Shown: piece by piece, positions 1 through 6,888 of the stretch
Layout: each line of letters begins with the position of its first letter
Numbering within the stretch: the first letter of the stretch is position 1
From: a bacterium
GTDB taxonomy: Bacteria; Bacteroidota; Bacteroidia; Bacteroidales; UBA3663
Direction: 5' to 3'
DNA length: 64,000 bases
Assembly: GCA_963631395.1 (NCBI GenBank)
Contig: CAVGQN010000007.1
Coordinates: 165-64,164 of the forward strand
Program-made: the position numbers and the translations under genes
The notes under the pieces: generated by a model
Told to the model about the DNA's origin: nothing
Database searches by the model: none
Seen by the model: the letters and a program-made list of their open reading frames with translations, nothing else

Positions 1-1312
1 GCTTTTTCTTGGCTTCGTCATTTGCGGCGGCCTCGGCTTCATTGCGCTGTCTGTCCTTGGCTTCTATGATTGCGGAGCGCAGATTATGCAGCTCCTCGTT
101 CACTTGCTCCATACGGTCAAAATAGCCCGAATACTTTTCAGTGACTGCGTCGTACTCCTTCTGTGCTTGTTCCATGGTCAAGGTGCCATCTTTCACCTTC
201 GCTTGCAGCTTTGCACGCTCACGCTTCACCACTTCCTCCTCGGGAAACACCTCCGCACGCTCTGCTGTGTGCAGGGCCGTCGCGTTATCCAGGTATCGCA
301 CGCGTGCCTCCATCTCTTCGATGTCAGACTCAGCGCTCCACTCCTTGCGCTCGTAGGTAGCCTCCGTAGGCTCGGTGTTCACGTCAGCAGGGTGATGTTC
401 GGTCTGTGCGACGCCGTCAACTGGTATAGCAACTTCCTTTTTCTCTCCTGCTTCCGCTGCACCTTCCGACGTTGCATTTTCTGCCGTTTTCACTGTGGCT
501 TCCACATTTTCTGCATTTTTTCCGTCGTTTTCTTGCACGGAATCGGAATTGGCCATATCTTTGCCCGCAGAAGATATTGGTTGGGAAGAGTTCCCGCCTC
601 TGTCAACAGTTACACCTCTTACGGCATCAGCCGGGCTGTCAGCAACTTCAGCAACGTCGGTGTTTGCGCTGCTCCCCATCGTGGGTCCGGGCCAAACAAT
701 ATCGTTTTTATCCGTATATTTGGTTTTGAATATACCTCCACTATTTACATTCCAGTATTGACCATCGCGGGACAATTCGACATAAAGAGTGCGCTTGTGT
801 TTGTCGTCATGGATTTCCAAAAGCATATAAGTCTTGTTTGTCCTTCGGTCTTTTCCGATGCGTATTTCTCTATAGTTACGGGTCACATCTTCCACGAACT
901 CTTCGACAGATGAATATCCGGCCTCTAATATTTGGTCGCCATGCCCGGCCTCAATGTGACGAAGCCCGTATCCAACATTATTTCCACGTTCATCTTTTTT
1001 ATTGAATCCCTCGCTCAATTTAATCGGAGCTGCTTTCAGACCGCTATCCTCGTGTATTTGACCGAAAACAGTAGTACCATCCGCTGCATTAACAAAGTGA
1101 TAGCCATGCTCATCTTTTTCATCGGACAGATTTGTAGAACCAGGCTTCTCCACACCTCCTTCCGTTTGGCCATTGAGCACCTCCTCTTCTTCCTTGCGAA
1201 TTCTTTCTGCTTCTGCCTTCTTCCGCTCTGCTGCCACTCCGGCTATCTGCTGCCAGTGCTCCAGGTCGGCCTTGGCTTTGGCTACATCCTGCTTCCATAG
1301 TTTTTTTGTCAT
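1..1312 (-). CDS. Window-truncated CDS (N-terminal 437 codons, continues beyond the left edge). Large mobile-element or polyvalent-type protein with a putative Barnase/EndoU-like (PBECR-type) nuclease module, an acidic linker and a coiled coil.
   Basis: Absent from the supplied track because it has no stop inside the window. Manual reverse-complement translation from ATG 1312-1310 gives an uninterrupted frame to the edge (base 1 is a partial codon). Sequence: MTKKLWKQDVAKAKADLEHWQQ ... NNVGYGLRHIEAGHGDQILEAGYSSVEEFVEDVTRNYREIRIGKDRRTNKTYMLLEIHDDKHKRTLYVELSRDGQYWNVNSGGIFK ... D/E/N/S-rich linker ... EEMEARVRYLDNATALH ... KDRQRNEAEAAANDEAKKK. The + strand track ORFs 86-913 and 932-1300 are its antisense shadows. 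The functional label is from memory of domain families, not a search. Confidence 0.75.
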   Translation of the reverse strand, partial: MTKKLWKQDVAKAKADLEHWQQIAGVAAERKKAEAERIRKEEEEVLNGQTEGGVEKPGSTNLSDEKDEHGYHFVNAADGTTVFGQIHEDSGLKAAPIKLSEGFNKKDERGNNVGYGLRHIEAGHGDQILEAGYSSVEEFVEDVTRNYREIRIGKDRRTNKTYMLLEIHDDKHKRTLYVELSRDGQYWNVNSGGIFKTKYTDKNDIVWPGPTMGSSANTDVAEVADSPADAVRGVTVDRGGNSSQPISSAGKDMANSDSVQENDGKNAENVEATVKTAENATSEGAAEAGEKKEVAIPVDGVAQTEHHPADVNTEPTEATYERKEWSAESDIEEMEARVRYLDNATALHTAERAEVFPEEEVVKRERAKLQAKVKDGTLTMEQAQKEYDAVTEKYSGYFDRMEQVNEELHNLRSAIIEAKDRQRNEAEAAANDEAKKK

Positions 1313-1490
1313 AATTATCTCACTTTTTTCGGACAAAGGTAGTTTTTGGGTTTGGGATTCGTTTTTTATCTGTTGTCGTTCATAGCAAATTTAGGTTTTT
1401 ATTGAAAAAATCAAGGCACAAACCGCGACCGCCCGAGACCGGACGGTCTTCAGTGTATCGTCACTTTCGTGGAAGTAGGGTCAGTGAATG

Positions 1491-1534
1491 ACGAATCAGG
1501 CTGATACTTGTGAAAAAGTATCAGCCTGATTCGT
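1491..1534. repeat. Perfect 19-bp inverted repeat (hairpin or cruciform) with a 6-nt loop
   Basis: ACGAATCAGGCTGATACTT (1491-1509), loop GTGAAA, then AAGTATCAGCCTGATTCGT (1516-1534), which is the exact reverse complement. Neither side has a U-run, so it is not a canonical intrinsic terminator. Confidence 0.9.
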
Positions 1535-1644
1535 GTAGCAAAAAATGGAAAAGCCAAGGCCGGAGTCAGAGCTTGCCTTGCTATACGGCCCTCGACTCGC
1601 GCCCTAACCAAGGGGCAAATCCGTTCCTACAATGGCATTGGAAA

Positions 1645-1885
1645 TTAGAACCGGACTCCGGCGCTGACGCCTACGCCGCCAAACTGGGAGAACAGTCCGT
1701 CAAGACTGACTTGCAGGCCCATATTCGTCGGTAAGAGCCCAAACGGTCAGTCCCACATTGGCGCCGAACTGCCAGTGCCCGGGCATCTCCGTAGCAGTAT
1801 TACTTTCTTGAGCGCACACACTGGTTGTTTTTGCGAAAGACATAGCTGCGAATGCCGCAACCATCAGCAATGTATTGATTTTCAT
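1645..1885 (-). pseudogene. Small secreted Gly-rich / outer-membrane-like protein split by a 1-nt frameshift, or a decayed OMP remnant
   Basis: Track ORF 1700-1885 has a signal peptide (MKINTLLMVAAFAAMSFAKTTSVCAQ) and then stops. A second frame stays open to TAA at 1647-1645 and reads PFGLLPTNMGLQVSLDGLFSQFGGVGVSAGVRF*. That tail has alternating hydrophobic residues and a terminal Phe, as in a beta-barrel C-terminal signal. The total span is 241 nt (3n+1). Confidence 0.4.
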
Positions 1886-2037
1886 AATATTATTGAAGAT
1901 TAAATTGGTTTTTATTCGCGTAAAATTCGTAAAATATTAAACTTCACACCGCAAAGATAGGCCTAACTTACTACAAACTTCGTTCATTTGTATGACAAGA
2001 TGAATAAGAAGATAAGGCTGACTCGCAGCAGCAGTCC

Positions 2038-2562
2038 TTATTTGGGCATATCGCAGATGGTTACCTTCAGGGAATCGCCCGCTTCACTTACAGAGACATT
2101 TGAGTAGTTGGTTTTAATTTCGACTAACTTGATTCCATTACAGCCAAACACAGTGAAGTCCGGATGGGTGCAGGTATAATGGAACAATCCCTTGAGTTTA
2201 TACTTGGCGCCACTGACCTTTACGATAAGTGTCGACTCGCCATAGCCGCTTGTTTTATCGGCAGTGTATTTCATCGCAGATTCCTTCGGCAGTGGAAACC
2301 GCAAACTTATCTGTTTGTTCTCGCCAGCGTCTACAATCGAAAACGGAATTTTATCGCCGCCAGTTTCGGATAAAGCCAAATTGTTTATGATGTAATCTTC
2401 ATCACTGGCAAGACTATTGCCGTTCGAATCCAAGACATCAAACAACACGTCATTGTGTATGGAAGAGGCAACTGCCGGACAAACTTCTCCTTCAGAATTG
2501 CCACATGATGACAAAGTCAAAAATGACAATAGAAGGCAACCAATCTTGACCAACTTTTTCAT
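2038..2562 (-). CDS. Hypothetical lipoprotein
   Basis: The track ORF starts at a GTG (2595). An internal ATG at 2562 gives MKKLVKIGCLLLSFLTLSSC with a lipobox (LSSC). I recognise no family. Confidence 0.7.
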   Translation of the reverse strand: MKKLVKIGCLLLSFLTLSSCGNSEGEVCPAVASSIHNDVLFDVLDSNGNSLASDEDYIINNLALSETGGDKIPFSIVDAGENKQISLRFPLPKESAMKYTADKTSGYGESTLIVKVSGAKYKLKGLFHYTCTHPDFTVFGCNGIKLVEIKTNYSNVSVSEAGDSLKVTICDMPK

Positions 2563-2615
2563 AAAATTTTTTTCTTGTGTATGTATACGAGTCACGTTTC
2601 AATTTTTGCGGTGCA

Positions 2616-2744
2616 AAGTTACATACATAAAAGTTTTCTTCCAAGAAAAAAAGTTTTACATTTGAAAAATTATTTTATTGATATACAGCAAGTTGCAAAA
2701 TGCGATTTTTAAAAAGTTTTACATGGCAAAAAAAAGTTTTACAT
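2616..2744. repeat. Five direct copies of an AAGTT(T)TACAT-type word in an AT-rich spacer
   Basis: Three perfect copies of AAGTTTTACAT at 2651-2661, 2714-2724 and 2734-2744. Degenerate copies are AAGTTACAT at 2616-2624 and AAGTTTTC at 2631-2638. The array lies between the mscS-like stop (2799) and the lipoprotein start (2562). A -7-like box TAACTTTG sits on the - strand at 2621-2614. Confidence 0.7.
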
Positions 2745-2798
2745 TGGCCACGTCAAGATGGTCCACTGCCCGTCTACAAGTGCGCGATTCTCCGGGCC

Positions 2799-3986
2799 TT
2801 AAAGTTTTTCCTCAAGAGCCTTTCCGCCGGAGCGCTGGAAGGCCGTGAGACCGTACTTCTGCAGCGAGGCCAAGGCATATTCGACCAGACGGGCCTGAAT
2901 CTCCTCGTATTCCTCCCACACCTTGGTACGGCTGAAGGCATACAACTGGACCGGAATGCCCTCGCACCCGGCATTGAGCTGGCGCACCATGTGGGTCATG
3001 CGGGTATTGAAGTCCGGACTTTGACTGATATACTGCTGCATCTGCCGACGGAAGACCTCGAGGTTGGTGGCCTCGCCGACACGCGCCGTCTCGGGAAGTG
3101 TGCCTTCCTGACGGCATTGCTCGACCTCCGAAGCTGTCAGAAAGCGCACCGAGTACATGTCGACACTGACCGTGCGCGTGATGCGGCGGCCATTGCCCGC
3201 CTGCATCCCCTTCCAGTTCTGAAACGTGTCGGAGAGCAGTGTGCAGGGCGGCACGGTCAGGATGGTATTGTCCCAGTTCTGCACTTTGACCGTGGTCAGC
3301 GTTATCTCTATCACCACACCGTCTACATTACGCGACGGCATACAGATCCAGTCGCCCACCGAGACCATATCGTTGAAGAGCAGCTGCACGCCGGCCACAA
3401 GGCCCTTGATGAGGTCCTGGAACACCAGCATCATGACACCGGCCATGACACCTAGGCCGGATATGAGATAGGCGGGCGATTTGTCTATCAGCACGCTCAC
3501 CGCCAGGATGGCAGCAATGACGGAGAGGAATATCTGAATGGTCTGCACCAGGCCCTTGAGCGACTTCAGACGCGTCCAGTCTCGGCCTTTCTCCCGATTG
3601 GAAACCAGCAATGCCTGAAACAGCGCATCGGCCAGGATGCAGAGGAACCTCGTGATACAAACGATGAGATAGACACCGGCCAGACGGCTCACCACGACGG
3701 CCAGCGTACCCCTGGTGACCAGCGGCAGGGCGAACAGCAGGACTATAGAGGGGATAATGTCGCCAAAGGCACGAATGACCTTGTCGCTCAAGATGACATC
3801 GTCGACACCGGTCTTCGTGCTGCTGGCCAGCCGATGCAAGGCCGGCGTGAAGATACGCCGGAAGAAGAAATCGAAAAGGAACGCTGCCAGGAATATCCCG
3901 GCCACAATGGCCAAACGCCAGTACCACGCAAGGGCCTGGTCGGCATCGCTGAGGTTGTGCTCCATCCAGTCTATCAACGTCTTCAT
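2799..3986 (-). CDS. Mechanosensitive ion channel family protein (MscS-like)
   Basis: Track ORF of 395 aa. N-terminal TM helices are followed by an MscS beta-domain signature (VSVGDWICMPSRNVDGVVIEITLTTVKVQNWDNTILTVP). Confidence 0.85.
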   Translation of the reverse strand: MKTLIDWMEHNLSDADQALAWYWRLAIVAGIFLAAFLFDFFFRRIFTPALHRLASSTKTGVDDVILSDKVIRAFGDIIPSIVLLFALPLVTRGTLAVVVSRLAGVYLIVCITRFLCILADALFQALLVSNREKGRDWTRLKSLKGLVQTIQIFLSVIAAILAVSVLIDKSPAYLISGLGVMAGVMMLVFQDLIKGLVAGVQLLFNDMVSVGDWICMPSRNVDGVVIEITLTTVKVQNWDNTILTVPPCTLLSDTFQNWKGMQAGNGRRITRTVSVDMYSVRFLTASEVEQCRQEGTLPETARVGEATNLEVFRRQMQQYISQSPDFNTRMTHMVRQLNAGCEGIPVQLYAFSRTKVWEEYEEIQARLVEYALASLQKYGLTAFQRSGGKALEEKL

Positions 3987-4019
3987 CTGCTTTGTCTCCT
4001 ATATCTGACGGCAACAATA

Positions 4020-4802
4020 TCAAAGGCTTCCCTTGGCTTTCTTGAGCTCGAGCAGGAACTTCTCGGCACGGGTCAAGTCTTCCGGCGTATCTATGCCGAC
4101 GGTCTCGATGTCGACAACCCGCACGGTGATGTGCATGCCGTTCTCCAGCCAGCGCAGCTGCTCCAGGCTCTCGGCCTTCTCCAGCGGGGTCTGCTCCATG
4201 GCCGTAATCCGAGCCAGTGCTTCCGGACGGTAGGCATAGAGCCCGATGTGCTTGTAGAAGACGTGGCGCTGCAGCCACTCGCTTTGGTCCACACCACGCA
4301 GATACGGAATGACGGAACGGCTGAAATAGAGCGCCTGACTGCGCGAGCCGAGAACGACCTTCGGACTGTTGGGGTTTGTCAATGCAGCCAGGCCATCTTC
4401 GGGATGGAAGGGCTTGACCAGCGTAGCTATCTCGGTGTGGGCGTCCATAAAGCAATCTTTAACGGCCTGTATCTGACGGGCGTCGATAAATGGCTCGTCG
4501 CCCTGCACGTTGATGATGACGTCATACTCGATGCCGAGCGCCTCACGCACCTTGCAGTAAGCCTCCTGCACGCGGTCGGTGCCGCTCTTGTGGTCGGCCG
4601 AAGTCATTACGACACGACCCTTGAAGCCCTCGACGGCATCATAGATGCGGGCATCGTCGGTGGCTACGACGGCCATATCTACCAGTGGGGCTACCTTTTC
4701 GTACACTCTCTGGATGACCGGCTTGCCGCCCAGTATGGCCAATGGCTTGCCCGGAAAACGTGTGCTCGCATAGCGGGCCGGAATGATTGCTATTACTTTC
4801 AT
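4020..4802 (-). CDS. kdsB: 3-deoxy-manno-octulosonate cytidylyltransferase (CMP-KDO synthetase)
   Basis: Track ORF of 260 aa. MKVIAIIPARYASTRFPGKPL and QGDEPFI are typical KdsB motifs. Confidence 0.92.
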   Translation of the reverse strand: MKVIAIIPARYASTRFPGKPLAILGGKPVIQRVYEKVAPLVDMAVVATDDARIYDAVEGFKGRVVMTSADHKSGTDRVQEAYCKVREALGIEYDVIINVQGDEPFIDARQIQAVKDCFMDAHTEIATLVKPFHPEDGLAALTNPNSPKVVLGSRSQALYFSRSVIPYLRGVDQSEWLQRHVFYKHIGLYAYRPEALARITAMEQTPLEKAESLEQLRWLENGMHITVRVVDIETVGIDTPEDLTRAEKFLLELKKAKGSL

Positions 4803-4862
4803 ATCTGTTGCTTTTGTATTTTGTTTGTATTAAGAATTATATTCCCGATAGAGGCCGTTGCC

Positions 4863-4957
4863 GTTTGCCCGTAAAAGAAGAAACGTTTCGCCGGCAGAAC
4901 TGGATTCGAATTTGCCCATAGCGGAGGGATTTGGTTTGCCCATAAAAGTGAAACGGC
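4863..4957. repeat. Degenerate direct repeats (GTTTGCCCRTAAAAGWGAAACG) in the relA-kdsB spacer
   Basis: GTTTGCCCGTAAAAGAAGAAACG at 4863-4885, a partial copy ATTTGCCCATAGCGG at 4910-4924, and GTTTGCCCATAAAAGTGAAACGG at 4935-4957. Spacing is 47 and 25 nt. Confidence 0.5.
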
Positions 4958-4995
4958 TTGCTCGCAAGTGAGCACGGGCCTTTGACCAAGAAGTC

Positions 4996-6888
4996 CTACA
5001 TGTTGCGCACTTCCTCTACGCCCTTGACCTGCTCGATGATGCGCATGGCCTCGGAGAGCTCGAAGGCCGACGGCACCTGCACCTTGACTCGGGTCGTGAC
5101 GATATAGTCTTCGGTGACGGTGTGCAGCGAGTCGATGCTGAGATGGAGGTCGTTGCTGATGACGTTGACCAAATCGAGCAGCAACGAGTTGCGGTCGACA
5201 CTGTTGATGACGATATGGGTCGGATAGGTGCGGTTGGGCAACACTGGCAGCGACACGTCGACAATCGAATCACCCTCTTTGACCGACAGCTGAATGGCCT
5301 CCGGGCAGTTGCGCTTGTGGACGATGATGCTGCCGTCGGAACGCTTGAAGCCGGAGATTTCGTCGCCGGGCAGCGGATTGCACTTGTCGCAGAGGCAATA
5401 GGGGAAGTTCTCGGCGGTGATGCCGCTCTTGCCCAACATGACGTTGACGGCACGGCGGGCCTTGTAGGTGCAGACGTGGTTGAGCCAACTGGGTTCTGGC
5501 GAAGTCAGGTCGTCGGTGCCGACCTCCACGCGGTCGCCGCGCTTGAGGACGGTGAAGATGCTGCAGAGTTTGCCGTTGATGCGGGCGAACTTGGCGTGAT
5601 TGCCCACATTGGTGTGTATCTCATAGGCCATGTCGAGCACGGTCGACTCTTTGGGCAGCACGATGCTGTTGCCTTTGGGCGTGAAGACGATGATGTCGTC
5701 GTTGTAGAACGAACTGACCACGCTCTCCATGAAGCCGCCGTCGGCCCCGGACTGGGCGATGTCTTTGAGCACGCCCTTGAACTTGAGCACCCACTTGTCG
5801 ATAGATTCCGTACGGTCTATCACACAACCCTGCTGCGAGTTGCGGCGCATCGACTCGGTGGCGATATGTATCTCGGCCCAACCGCCCATGTGCGTCATCA
5901 CCTGCACGTGGATGGCCTGATAGCCGTTCTCCTTGGGCTGGTCGATGTAATTGATCATCGAGTAGGGACGCTCTTTGTACAAGTCGGTCAGCAGGCTGTA
6001 TATGCGCAGGCACTGGTTCTTCTCGCTCGGCCCGTCGGGGTCGGCATCGAAGACGATGTTGATGATGTGCACGTGCTCGAGTTCCTTGAACGTCTGCCCG
6101 GATTTCTGCATCTTGCGCCACAGGGCATAGACCGAGCGCGCCTTGGCAAAGACCTGCGCCTTGATACCCTCGTTGGCCAGCGTCTCTCTGATGGGAATCA
6201 GGAACTCCTGGATGTCAGCCTCGTGCTGCTGCATGTACGAGTTGATCTTGCGCTCGACTCTCTCGTACTCGTGCGGCGAGCGGAACTTCATCGAGAGGTT
6301 CTCCAGTTCTGACTTGATGTCGTAGAGCCCGAGGCGGTTGGCCAAAGGCGCATAGAAATAGTCTGTTTCGGAGGCAATCTTCATCTGCTTGTCAGGGCGC
6401 ATGCTGTCGAGGGTGCGCATGTTGTGCATGCGGTCGCTCAACTTGATGAGTAGTGCCCGGATGTCGTACTGTATGGAGTCGAGCATCTGCTTGAAGTTGT
6501 CTATCTGCTTGGAAACCTTGTAATTGCCGTCGGCCTTTTTGGTCAAGACTCCCACCAGGAAGGCCACATCGTTGCCGAACTCGTTGCGGATGTCTTCGAT
6601 GGTGAAGTCGGTGTCTTCCACAACGTCGTGCAGCAAGGCCGCAATGATGCTGTTGGTGCTAAGCCCCAACTCGACCAGTGCAATACGGGCCACAGAAATA
6701 GGATGCGTGATGTACGGGATGCCGCTCTTGCGGGCCTGCGTGGCATGCGCCTTGGCCGCGAGGGCATAAGCCGCCTCGATGCTCGGCATGTCGCTGGCCG
6801 GTAGCCGTTCTCTGCAACGCTCAAACAGTTCTTCCTTCATCTCTTCTACCATTCTGGTGGCCTCTTCGGCTGAAATCTTGCCTTCCAT
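4996..6888 (-). CDS. Bifunctional (p)ppGpp synthetase/hydrolase, RelA/SpoT family
   Basis: Track ORF of 630 aa. It has an HD hydrolase motif (HPISVARI...LLHDVVEDT), a RelA_SpoT synthetase core, a TGS segment and a C-terminal ACT-like domain. Confidence 0.9.
   Translation of the reverse strand: MEGKISAEEATRMVEEMKEELFERCRERLPASDMPSIEAAYALAAKAHATQARKSGIPYITHPISVARIALVELGLSTNSIIAALLHDVVEDTDFTIEDIRNEFGNDVAFLVGVLTKKADGNYKVSKQIDNFKQMLDSIQYDIRALLIKLSDRMHNMRTLDSMRPDKQMKIASETDYFYAPLANRLGLYDIKSELENLSMKFRSPHEYERVERKINSYMQQHEADIQEFLIPIRETLANEGIKAQVFAKARSVYALWRKMQKSGQTFKELEHVHIINIVFDADPDGPSEKNQCLRIYSLLTDLYKERPYSMINYIDQPKENGYQAIHVQVMTHMGGWAEIHIATESMRRNSQQGCVIDRTESIDKWVLKFKGVLKDIAQSGADGGFMESVVSSFYNDDIIVFTPKGNSIVLPKESTVLDMAYEIHTNVGNHAKFARINGKLCSIFTVLKRGDRVEVGTDDLTSPEPSWLNHVCTYKARRAVNVMLGKSGITAENFPYCLCDKCNPLPGDEISGFKRSDGSIIVHKRNCPEAIQLSVKEGDSIVDVSLPVLPNRTYPTHIVINSVDRNSLLLDLVNVISNDLHLSIDSLHTVTEDYIVTTRVKVQVPSAFELSEAMRIIEQVKGVEEVRNM

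Follow-up and report, generated by a model that had tools for sequence, protein, structure and literature searches.

The left end of a 64,000-nucleotide stretch of Bacteroidales DNA raises the question of what gene starts there, and whether it belongs to the host chromosome or to a mobile element. The stretch, hereafter the window, spans positions 165 to 64,164 of contig CAVGQN010000007.1, i.e., contig C7 of genome G000 (assembly GCA_963631395.1, lineage UBA3663), an assembly of 132 contigs that is 92% complete. A long open reading frame (ORF) on the minus strand starts at position 1312 and runs out of the window. Taken as a whole, the evidence makes it likely that this frame is the start of a phage-type polyvalent effector gene, present as a host-resident copy, with a first module related to the PBECR family. 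Genes of this type string unrelated effector modules on low-complexity linkers in one polypeptide.

The open reading frame and its protein class

Translation from the ATG at 1312 gave 437 codons without a stop up to the window edge, as an earlier note made from the sequence alone had claimed. The same frame was open for a further 164 nucleotides (nt) to the end of contig C7, which gives 492 codons from the ATG. Because no stop occurs in this remaining part, the gene is truncated at a break in the assembly as well as at the window edge. The expectation of the note that most of the gene lies outside the window was borne out. Shadow ORFs on the plus strand (86..913 and 932..1300) overlie the gene, and an ordinary ORF track would give these instead, as the track behind the note had done. 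In an ORF listing with open ends, the frame was found at 2..1336 with a TTG start. The ATG at 1312 is the likelier start, because the TTG falls inside an octamer, TACCTTTG, that matches TAnnTTTG. The -7 promoter consensus of Bacteroidetes is TAnnTTTG, and the octamer, which we take to fit it, is a putative promoter motif. At the equivalent position, TAGATTTG is carried by genome G019, the closest relative of the window's genome.

The note divided the product into a globular module, a linker of about 130 amino acids (aa) and a coiled coil. This layout was essentially right. The globular module, at residues 62-214, contains GYGLRHIEAGHGDQ, EIHDDKHKR and YWNVNSGGIFK, but the linker is shorter than claimed, i.e., approximately 105 aa (residues 215-320). 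The linker ends in ADVNTEPTEA (residues 309-318, window 359-388), the point at which the InPase module starts in homologues. The InPase domain itself is missing from the window ORF and the similarity to the homologues stops at this motif; the linker end looks like a recombination junction. The segment that follows is rich in E, A, K and R and is probably helical, judging from its composition. The last ~67 residues before the contig end matched residues 632-700 of the homologue P0005 at 46%, and the matching part runs past the window edge.

The module connects the ORF to all its homologues. In a search of a set of 5.8 billion proteins, every one of the 59 homologues matched through it. It is N-terminal, central or C-terminal, depending on the homologue, and is combined with InPase, PBECR1, PBECR3, MuF_C, LPD3, LPD23 and ddrB-ParB domains. 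An exhaustive profile search found approximately 1,030 protein clusters at E <= 1e-3 (clustering at 50% identity), the best 150 of which were all close relatives. The clusters are mostly proteins of 2,000-6,500 aa, and some have two copies of the module. One giant member carries LPD14, InPase, LPD23 and MuF_C, and another LPD5, LPD1, MuF_C and LPD38. The best fold matches of the module in BFVD were internal domains of large phage polyvalent proteins. InPase, PBECR, MuF_C, LPD and ddrB-ParB are domain families of polyvalent proteins (Iyer et al. 2017, PMC5512222). Because the module homologues and the giant members carry these families, the assignment of the window ORF to the polyvalent class, which the note had proposed, is well supported.

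The C7 portion of the gene (492 aa) has a single recognisable module. Scans of the ORF with Pfam, NCBIfam, PHROGs and PADLOC gave no model above threshold. Matches to WSD, DUF4600, tape-measure, SMC and PbeC were rejected as low-complexity or coiled-coil noise.

In a scan with one genome per species, the module was found at 67 loci and was nearly confined to Bacteroidales. The isolates that bear it include Lepagella muris (strain NM04_E33), Millionella massiliensis (Marseille-P3215), Prevotella amnii (DSM 23384) and Prevotellamassilia timonensis. The module was also seen, at 57-74% identity, in bins labelled Desulfovibrionaceae, Lachnospiraceae, Anaerovoracaceae or Bacillota (L026, L028, L029, L030 and L063). 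In three of these five bins the contigs are 6-12 kb long, and in L030 and L063 they are 53 and 151 kb. Mis-binning of the short contigs is likely, because the module is otherwise specific to Bacteroidales. The two long contigs may be real transfers or wrongly labelled bins.

Fold and candidate activity of the first module

The alignment of 23 diverse homologues (A1) has 27 invariant positions, including the Tyr-Gly-x-x-His of GYGLxH and the Tyr-Trp-x-Val-Asn of YWNVNS. His58 of the module, i.e., His119 of the ORF, is invariant. Ser130, i.e., Ser191 of the ORF, is present in at least 90% of the members and replaced by Thr in the rest. The invariant polar residues are His, Thr, Asn, Tyr and Trp, and Asp and Ser are nearly invariant. 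His119, His124 and Ser191 are the candidate catalytic residues.

The AlphaFold model of the whole module, made from A1, had a pLDDT of 89.9 and a pTM of 0.86. Its elements are, in order, beta-hairpins (21-54), two helices (55-69 and 75-85) and an antiparallel sheet of four strands (88-94, 99-107, 111-119 and 126-135; module numbering). The BECR core is defined by an N-terminal helix that bears a His and by four or five strands, the fourth of which bears a Ser/Thr (PMC5512222). The model has this topology, and His58 lies in the first core helix and Ser/Thr130 in the fourth strand, which are the PBECR positions. The best match of the model in the PDB by Foldseek was 7m5f_C (E 1.4e-3), the sole PDB match with a probability of 1.00. 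This chain of 119 residues is a CdiA-CT toxin, and its depositors call it BECR-fold (PMC8616854).

At the sequence level, 9 of the 23 A1 members matched PBECR3 at E of 1 or better. The register was constant, over profile positions 30-104, and the best member reached approximately 23 bits (E 6.4e-5 to 7.9e-6). PBECR3 and PBECR1 were the sole functionally named families among the recurring sub-threshold matches of the module. The module was also compared by hhalign with A3, i.e., ten true PBECR3 domains, nine of them from genomic matches above cutoff. The register of this alignment, which had a probability of 5.4%, laid the His of GYGLxH on the PBECR3 His.

Several results weigh against a PBECR-like nuclease. 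The window ORF scored 14.4 bits against PBECR3 (E 0.037), and both this score and that of the best relative are under the Pfam gathering cutoff of 30 bits (PF18812), so the module falls outside PBECR3 as Pfam defines it. The low probability of the hhalign alignment came with an E of 0.0072 over 46 columns. The TM-scores to 7m5f_C were low, at 0.32 and 0.39, with a root-mean-square deviation of 10.9 A, and no other BECR structure (RelE, colicin E5/D, barnase or EndoU) was among the top Foldseek matches. The core without the N-terminal hairpins (residues 111-203) folded poorly, and a fold search with this core-only model returned noise.

The last two results bear on the hairpin subdomain (ORF residues 62-115, ...FG.I....GL..APIKLSEG...), which has no counterpart in the PBECR3 profile. 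The pLDDT was 89.9 with it and 62.5 without it. We take the subdomain to be an integral part of the module, because the core-only model folds poorly and finds only noise.

These weak scores leave room for the alternative that the module is not a ribonuclease (RNase). It would then be another small alpha+beta domain, e.g., a binding or adaptor domain or a different enzyme, that shares the helix-plus-sheet topology. The hhalign probability of 5% and TM-scores below 0.4 agree with this, and so do the NTF2/cystatin-like folds that Foldseek matched at E ~1. DUF6488 was weakly matched by 20 of the 23 A1 members, and a sequence-profile search of the PDB gave nothing meaningful and no solved structure. 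On the other side, the invariant and near-invariant polar residues point to an enzyme, with His and Ser/Thr at the PBECR positions, and the sole PDB match at probability 1.00 is a BECR toxin. The recurring families with a functional name are PBECR3 and PBECR1 only, and a true PBECR3 fills the same slot in G019. A module other than an RNase is considered rather unlikely.

We lean towards a module that works like a PBECR RNase, an activity predicted from the modelled fold. It cannot be filed under PBECR3; it is best regarded as a family of its own, related to PBECR and covered by no model, in which an N-terminal beta-hairpin subdomain is obligatory. The note had compared this module with PBECR-like nucleases of mobile elements. 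This is still the most likely reading, with the BECR topology and the match to 7m5f_C behind it, but the score of 14.4 against 30 bits and the hhalign probability of 5% do not establish membership in the family. In the proposed mechanism, residues 62-214 would be an uncatalogued relative of the PBECR family of BECR-fold metal-independent endoribonucleases. RNA would be cleaved by the likely catalytic pair of His119 (first core helix) and Ser191 (fourth strand).

Probable continuation, relatives and genomic setting

Contig C67 of the assembly ends in a minus-strand frame of 958 codons, which is open at the contig end facing C7 and is in the right orientation. The frame carries a MuF_C domain (MuF_C/PBECR) and a HEYAH zincin-like motif, and it is 66% identical to part of a polyvalent protein of 1,920 aa. 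A single ORF of G019 holds the leader and the linker of C7 and two C67 blocks. In the homologue P0002 (90% identity to the window ORF), the module and a C67-type segment are joined in one protein. The giant Prevotella ORF in locus L027 matches C7 at ~1755-1976 and then C67 at ~3330-3410. Because these three independent comparisons agree, C7 is placed before C67. We infer that the window gene quite probably continues on C67.

One point speaks against this join, as the contigs C7 and C67 have no overlap. With regard to the setting, the other genes of C67 lie on a different contig in G019 and not beside the polyvalent gene, which leaves the left flank uncorroborated by synteny. These genes (C67 570-9837, L005) encode a PEGA-repeat protein, an FGE-sulfatase-domain protein, two Fic/DOC proteins and a Schlafen protein with AlbA_2 and HATPase_c_4 domains, and the region resembles a variable or defence-island region. 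No integrase, tra, capsid or other phage gene was found on C67, and there was no PHROG match. No obvious immunity gene was recognised; a 152-aa ORF downstream on C67 had no matches. A repeat that has at least 12 copies in G019 occupies nucleotides 5-200 of C67, which accounts for the contig break at that end.

G019 is a sister species (MscS 95% identical) with a polyvalent ORF at the same site. The leader and the linker are common to both ORFs (Table 1), and the first module differs. In G019, the slot behind the same leader is filled by a bona fide PBECR3 (55.6 bits). The G019 assembly also breaks inside the polyvalent gene, which continues on G019:C13. The N-terminal sequence of the G019 gene is shared by contig G318:C72, and the 865-aa open frame held by this contig is probably the same gene in complete form. 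C72 (L095/L104) is a 3.8-kb contig in a genome of a different family of the order, and its N-terminus is letter-for-letter identical to the ORF beside MscS on G019:C18 (L020). This identity reflects either a very recent transfer or a mis-binned contig. Overall, the modules of the polyvalent locus appear to be exchanged by recombination between lineages.

The module was not found in 24 congeners or in 16 other genomes of the order, and polyvalent-type sequence occurred in 4 of 39 species of the genus. The guanine-cytosine (GC) content is 0.36-0.47 left of ~2.75 kb and 0.57-0.60 in the core genes. The lipoprotein ORF of this part had no homologue in 25 congeners, including G019, and no PHROG match. 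The segment left of ~2.75 kb is accessory, because its composition is distinct, the module and the lipoprotein are absent from the congeners, and polyvalent sequence is limited to the 4 of 39 species. The note proposed a comparison with sister strains to see whether the region is present in some and absent in others. Polyvalent-type sequence varies in this way within the genus, and the sister species keeps a gene at the same site with a swapped module.

No clean empty site was found in the congeners, where the synteny beyond MscS is rearranged. In G013 and G003, MscS is followed by an NhaC-like transporter, a 678-aa protein and ThrRS. The window's genome has these genes at another place, behind MetK on contig C35, and no clean insertion boundary could therefore be drawn.

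The note also placed the border of an integrated element at or left of ~2.7 kb. The accessory and compositionally distinct nature of the segment agrees with this, but the usual signs of a border were not found. No tRNA gene was detected in window 1-5000 and no integrase on C67, and as for attachment sites, only local repeats were seen. No type IV secretion system, relaxase or tra gene was found on C67 or, to a distance of 10 kb, among the precomputed Pfam annotations around eight homologous loci; no scan for tra genes was made in the remainder of the window. No virion or packaging genes were found beside the gene in G000, and neither the G000 assembly nor G019 has a homologue of the capsid gene of the giant versions.

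The eight homologous loci are short versions on long metagenomic contigs. Seven are flanked by housekeeping genes on both sides, and the eighth (L023) on one side before the contig end. The flanking genes include Lon, TGT, LptF/G, ClpXP, RecQ, DnaG and RadA, and no integrase, phage or tra gene lies within 10 kb. At two of the sites, the polyvalent content differs between samples (L003 vs L025; L108 vs L109 vs L024). The site DUF5063 ... methyltransferase-Lon-TGT holds, e.g., ORFs of 748+137+1920 aa vs 689+548 aa, and the site MFS ... DUF6621-SpoU-RadA, e.g., 332+558 aa vs 306+627+1626 aa. In L024 (11965-16062), a 1,365-aa ORF with a C5 DNA-methylase domain comes directly after a module-bearing ORF of 655 aa, beside Lon. 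This ORF counts as a methylase of the polyvalent type that lies in a chromosomal context.

The giant versions, in contrast, belong to prophages. The surroundings of the 5,369-aa ORF of Lepagella muris include an SU10-type capsid gene, an Amidase_3 lysin, an integrase, a second giant ORF and genes that match PHROGs. In 8 of 22 genomes, a homologue of this capsid gene shares a contig with the module, at a distance of 12-24 kb. By our estimate, fewer than one such co-localisation would be expected by chance, because each genome has only one or two such capsid genes. For Prevotella amnii DSM 23384, which has a frame of 2,058 aa, no capsid homologue was found. A test of integrase distance at the module loci gave mixed, weak results; the capsid co-localisation was clearer.

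Polyvalent proteins without phage or conjugative context have been described as a 'third context', read as element remnants acquired by the host and possibly defensive (PMC5512222). The window locus best fits this context, i.e., a host-resident, phage-derived polyvalent gene, because G000 and G019 have no capsid homologue. The state of the assembly, with its 132 contigs and 92% completeness, tells against this placement, as phage genes could be unassembled or missing.

Alternatively, the frame could be a decaying, functionless fragment of a former prophage gene, open by chance or through recent truncation and neither expressed nor used by the host. The N-terminal ~1,700 residues of the giant versions are missing, the InPase module edge without an InPase domain is a probable recombination scar, the frame adjoins a broken outer-membrane gene, and no PHROG or PADLOC match was above threshold. 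Decay agrees poorly with at least 492 and 958 stop-free codons, with the intact state of all invariant module residues, and with the TAnnTTTG motif before the ATG both here and in G019. The sister species keeps an intact version with a different module at the same site, and similar short loci, which vary in content, are maintained at several places in chromosomes. A functionless fragment is considered unlikely.

It is quite unlikely that the ORF is part of an intact prophage or other integrated element, with the rest unassembled or missing and the window touching its border. In favour of such an element, 8 of 22 genomes carry the giant version as a prophage gene, with the detail seen at the Lepagella locus; the fragmented assembly breaks inside the gene; and the segment has a low GC content and is missing from most congeners. 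Against it, the ORF begins close to the lipoprotein gene (~0.7 kb) and to MscS (~1.5 kb) and has its own promoter-like motif, whereas prophage modules lie ~1,000-2,000 residues inside a giant ORF. Searches of G000 with the capsid protein, with the phrog_32516 protein and with the N-terminal part of the giant ORF in L027 gave no match. The arrangement in G019 is the same, also without a capsid homologue, and the G019 gene may be only ~865 aa long (G318:C72). Window 1-5000 has no tRNA gene and C67 no integrase.

The preferred reading is a host-resident polyvalent effector gene that was broken by an assembly gap. C67 would add 958 codons with the zincin-like motif and the MuF_C/PBECR domain. In the published model, polyvalent proteins travel inside the virion, are injected together with the DNA and are then split into separate effectors by metallopeptidase domains of their own (PMC5512222). 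On this model, the linkers of the polyprotein would be the cleavage sites for the zincin-like domain on C67. The window copy would be a shorter, host-resident version beside MscS-KdsB-RelA/SpoT, with its own promoter-like motif and no recognisable prophage or conjugative element. At present, it may be a domesticated effector or a slowly decaying remnant.

A wider proposal is offered with little confidence. Prevotellaceae and other Bacteroidales might keep short, promoter-equipped polyvalent genes at fixed sites, i.e., next to MscS, Lon/TGT and DUF6621-SpoU-RadA, as a domesticated, module-swapping host system against phages or competitors. The alternation of PBECR3 and the new module between the sister species would be an instance of such swapping, and the host would use effector arrays of phage derivation, the uncatalogued BECR-like RNase among them. 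If true, this would be a host-side counterpart of the phage polyvalent proteins and would need some control of self-toxicity.

The features that the note had listed between the ORF and the core genes MscS-KdsB-RelA/SpoT were all real, i.e., a broken small gene, an orphan lipoprotein gene, a perfect hairpin and AT-rich direct repeats (Table 1). For the hairpin and intergenic region (window 1-3000), no tRNA and no real Rfam family was found, and the sole match was a spurious microRNA. Scans for sigma-70 promoters and terminators stayed at background level. The C-terminal piece of the broken small gene, which ends in ...GVGVSAGVRF and a stop, resembles the final strand of a small beta-barrel protein of the outer membrane. 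This remnant is present in G019 too, and the disruption is therefore older than the split of the two species. The AT-rich repeats are local and tandem-like, with a spacer GC of 0.36. They may serve the lipoprotein gene as promoter elements, or they may be a scar of recombination.

Table 1. Coordinates of the polyvalent-type ORF, its parts and the neighbouring features (window numbering)
Feature	Position	Strand	Remarks
Polyvalent-type ORF, 5' part	1..1312	-	437 codons in window, 492 to contig end, still open
E/A/K/R-rich segment from residue 321	1..352	-	By composition
Low-complexity linker (A, V, E, S, D, G-rich), residues 215-320	353..670	-	67% over 42 aa with G019 linker
Conserved 153-aa module, residues 62-214; predicted BECR-like (PBECR-related) RNase domain with N-terminal beta-hairpin extension	671..1129	-	
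Leader, residues 1-61, contains LEHWQQIAGVAAERKKAEAERIRKEEEE	1130..1312	-	Common to syntenic G019 ORF (70% over 43 aa) and P0002
TACCTTTG, match to TAnnTTTG	1334..1341	-	Ends 21 nt upstream of ATG 1312; putative promoter motif
19-bp perfect inverted repeat, 6-nt loop	1491..1534		Conserved in G019; no T-run
Broken small gene	1645..1885	-	61-aa signal-peptide ORF 1700-1885, then MGLQVSLDGLFSQFGGVGVSAGVRF and a stop in another frame, 1645-1722
Orphan lipoprotein ORF, LSSC lipobox	2038..2595	-	Likely start MKKLVK at 2562
Three AT-rich direct repeats (AAAAAGTTTTACAT...)	2648..2759	+	Between lipoprotein gene and 3' end of MscS gene, at GC switch

Meaning of the locus and comparison with known systems

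Polyvalent proteins were already known as a large class of phage and plasmid arsenal proteins, which are predicted yet almost never tested. The new points are the unmodelled module family, the natural swap of PBECR3 and the new module at one locus, and the recurrence of short versions at chromosomal sites. The module is widespread (~1,030 clusters, nearly all in Bacteroidales) and is covered by no Pfam, NCBIfam, PHROG or PADLOC model. Its confident predicted structure and the candidate catalytic pair make it directly testable as an RNase. The same leader and linker with PBECR3 in one species and the new module in its sister is a clean natural module replacement and supports the idea of a recombinational arms race. 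The short versions at fixed chromosomal sites in gut Bacteroidales, without phage genes, bear on the host domestication of effectors. Metagenome assemblies are routinely interrupted at polyvalent genes, and an ORF track will miss these genes if it leaves out frames that are truncated at an edge.

The locus is most directly compared with the polyvalent proteins of Iyer et al. (2017, J Bacteriol; PMC5512222). As in these proteins, unrelated effector modules appear to be strung on low-complexity linkers. The module co-occurs with InPase, MuF_C, PBECR1/3, ddrB-ParB and LPD1/3/5/14/23/38, and a zincin-like HEYAH motif is found on the probable continuation, C67. The module content varies among orthologous loci, and the giant versions lie beside capsid and lysin genes. 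The locus differs in its first module, which is covered by no Pfam model of polyvalent domains, and in its start, as the window copy begins directly at a short leader beside core genes. The prophage versions are much longer than the window copy, whose minimum length is 492 aa, or ~1,450 aa should C67 be its continuation. Packaging and injection would not apply to the window copy unless a helper phage exists.

With PBECR3 and the PBECR clade, the module shares the predicted N-terminal helix followed by a four-stranded sheet, with the His in the helix and the Ser/Thr in strand 4. The sub-threshold matches to PBECR3 recur in one register, both domains occur in polyvalent proteins, and they are interchangeable in one slot in the sister species. 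The module differs from PBECR3 in scores under the gathering cutoff and in a profile-profile probability of 5%. It has an extra beta-hairpin subdomain of ~54 residues, apparently needed for folding of the core, a second conserved His (GYGLxHIExxHG) and its own YWNVNS motif.

The CdiA-CT toxin of Serratia marcescens BWH57 (PDB 7M5F chain C) is the best structural match, and the two align over 103 columns at 22% identity. For the toxin, the depositors have proposed an active site of His/Glu/His/Arg, located on the helix-sheet face (PMC8616854). The likeness has the limit of TM-scores of 0.32-0.39. Unlike the toxin, the module protein has no delivery domain for contact-dependent inhibition and no recognisable adjacent immunity gene. 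The toxin reaches its target by contact-dependent secretion, whereas the setting here is a phage virion or a host-resident gene.

The Helicobacter prophage protein jhp1044 offers a parallel for the variation of the locus (PMC5512222). It belongs to another phylum, holds other modules and sits in recognisable prophages. Its PBECR and ParB modules are heavily reshuffled between strains at orthologous loci, and comparable reshuffling was seen among the window ORF, G019 and P0002, and in the pairs L003/L025 and L108/L109.

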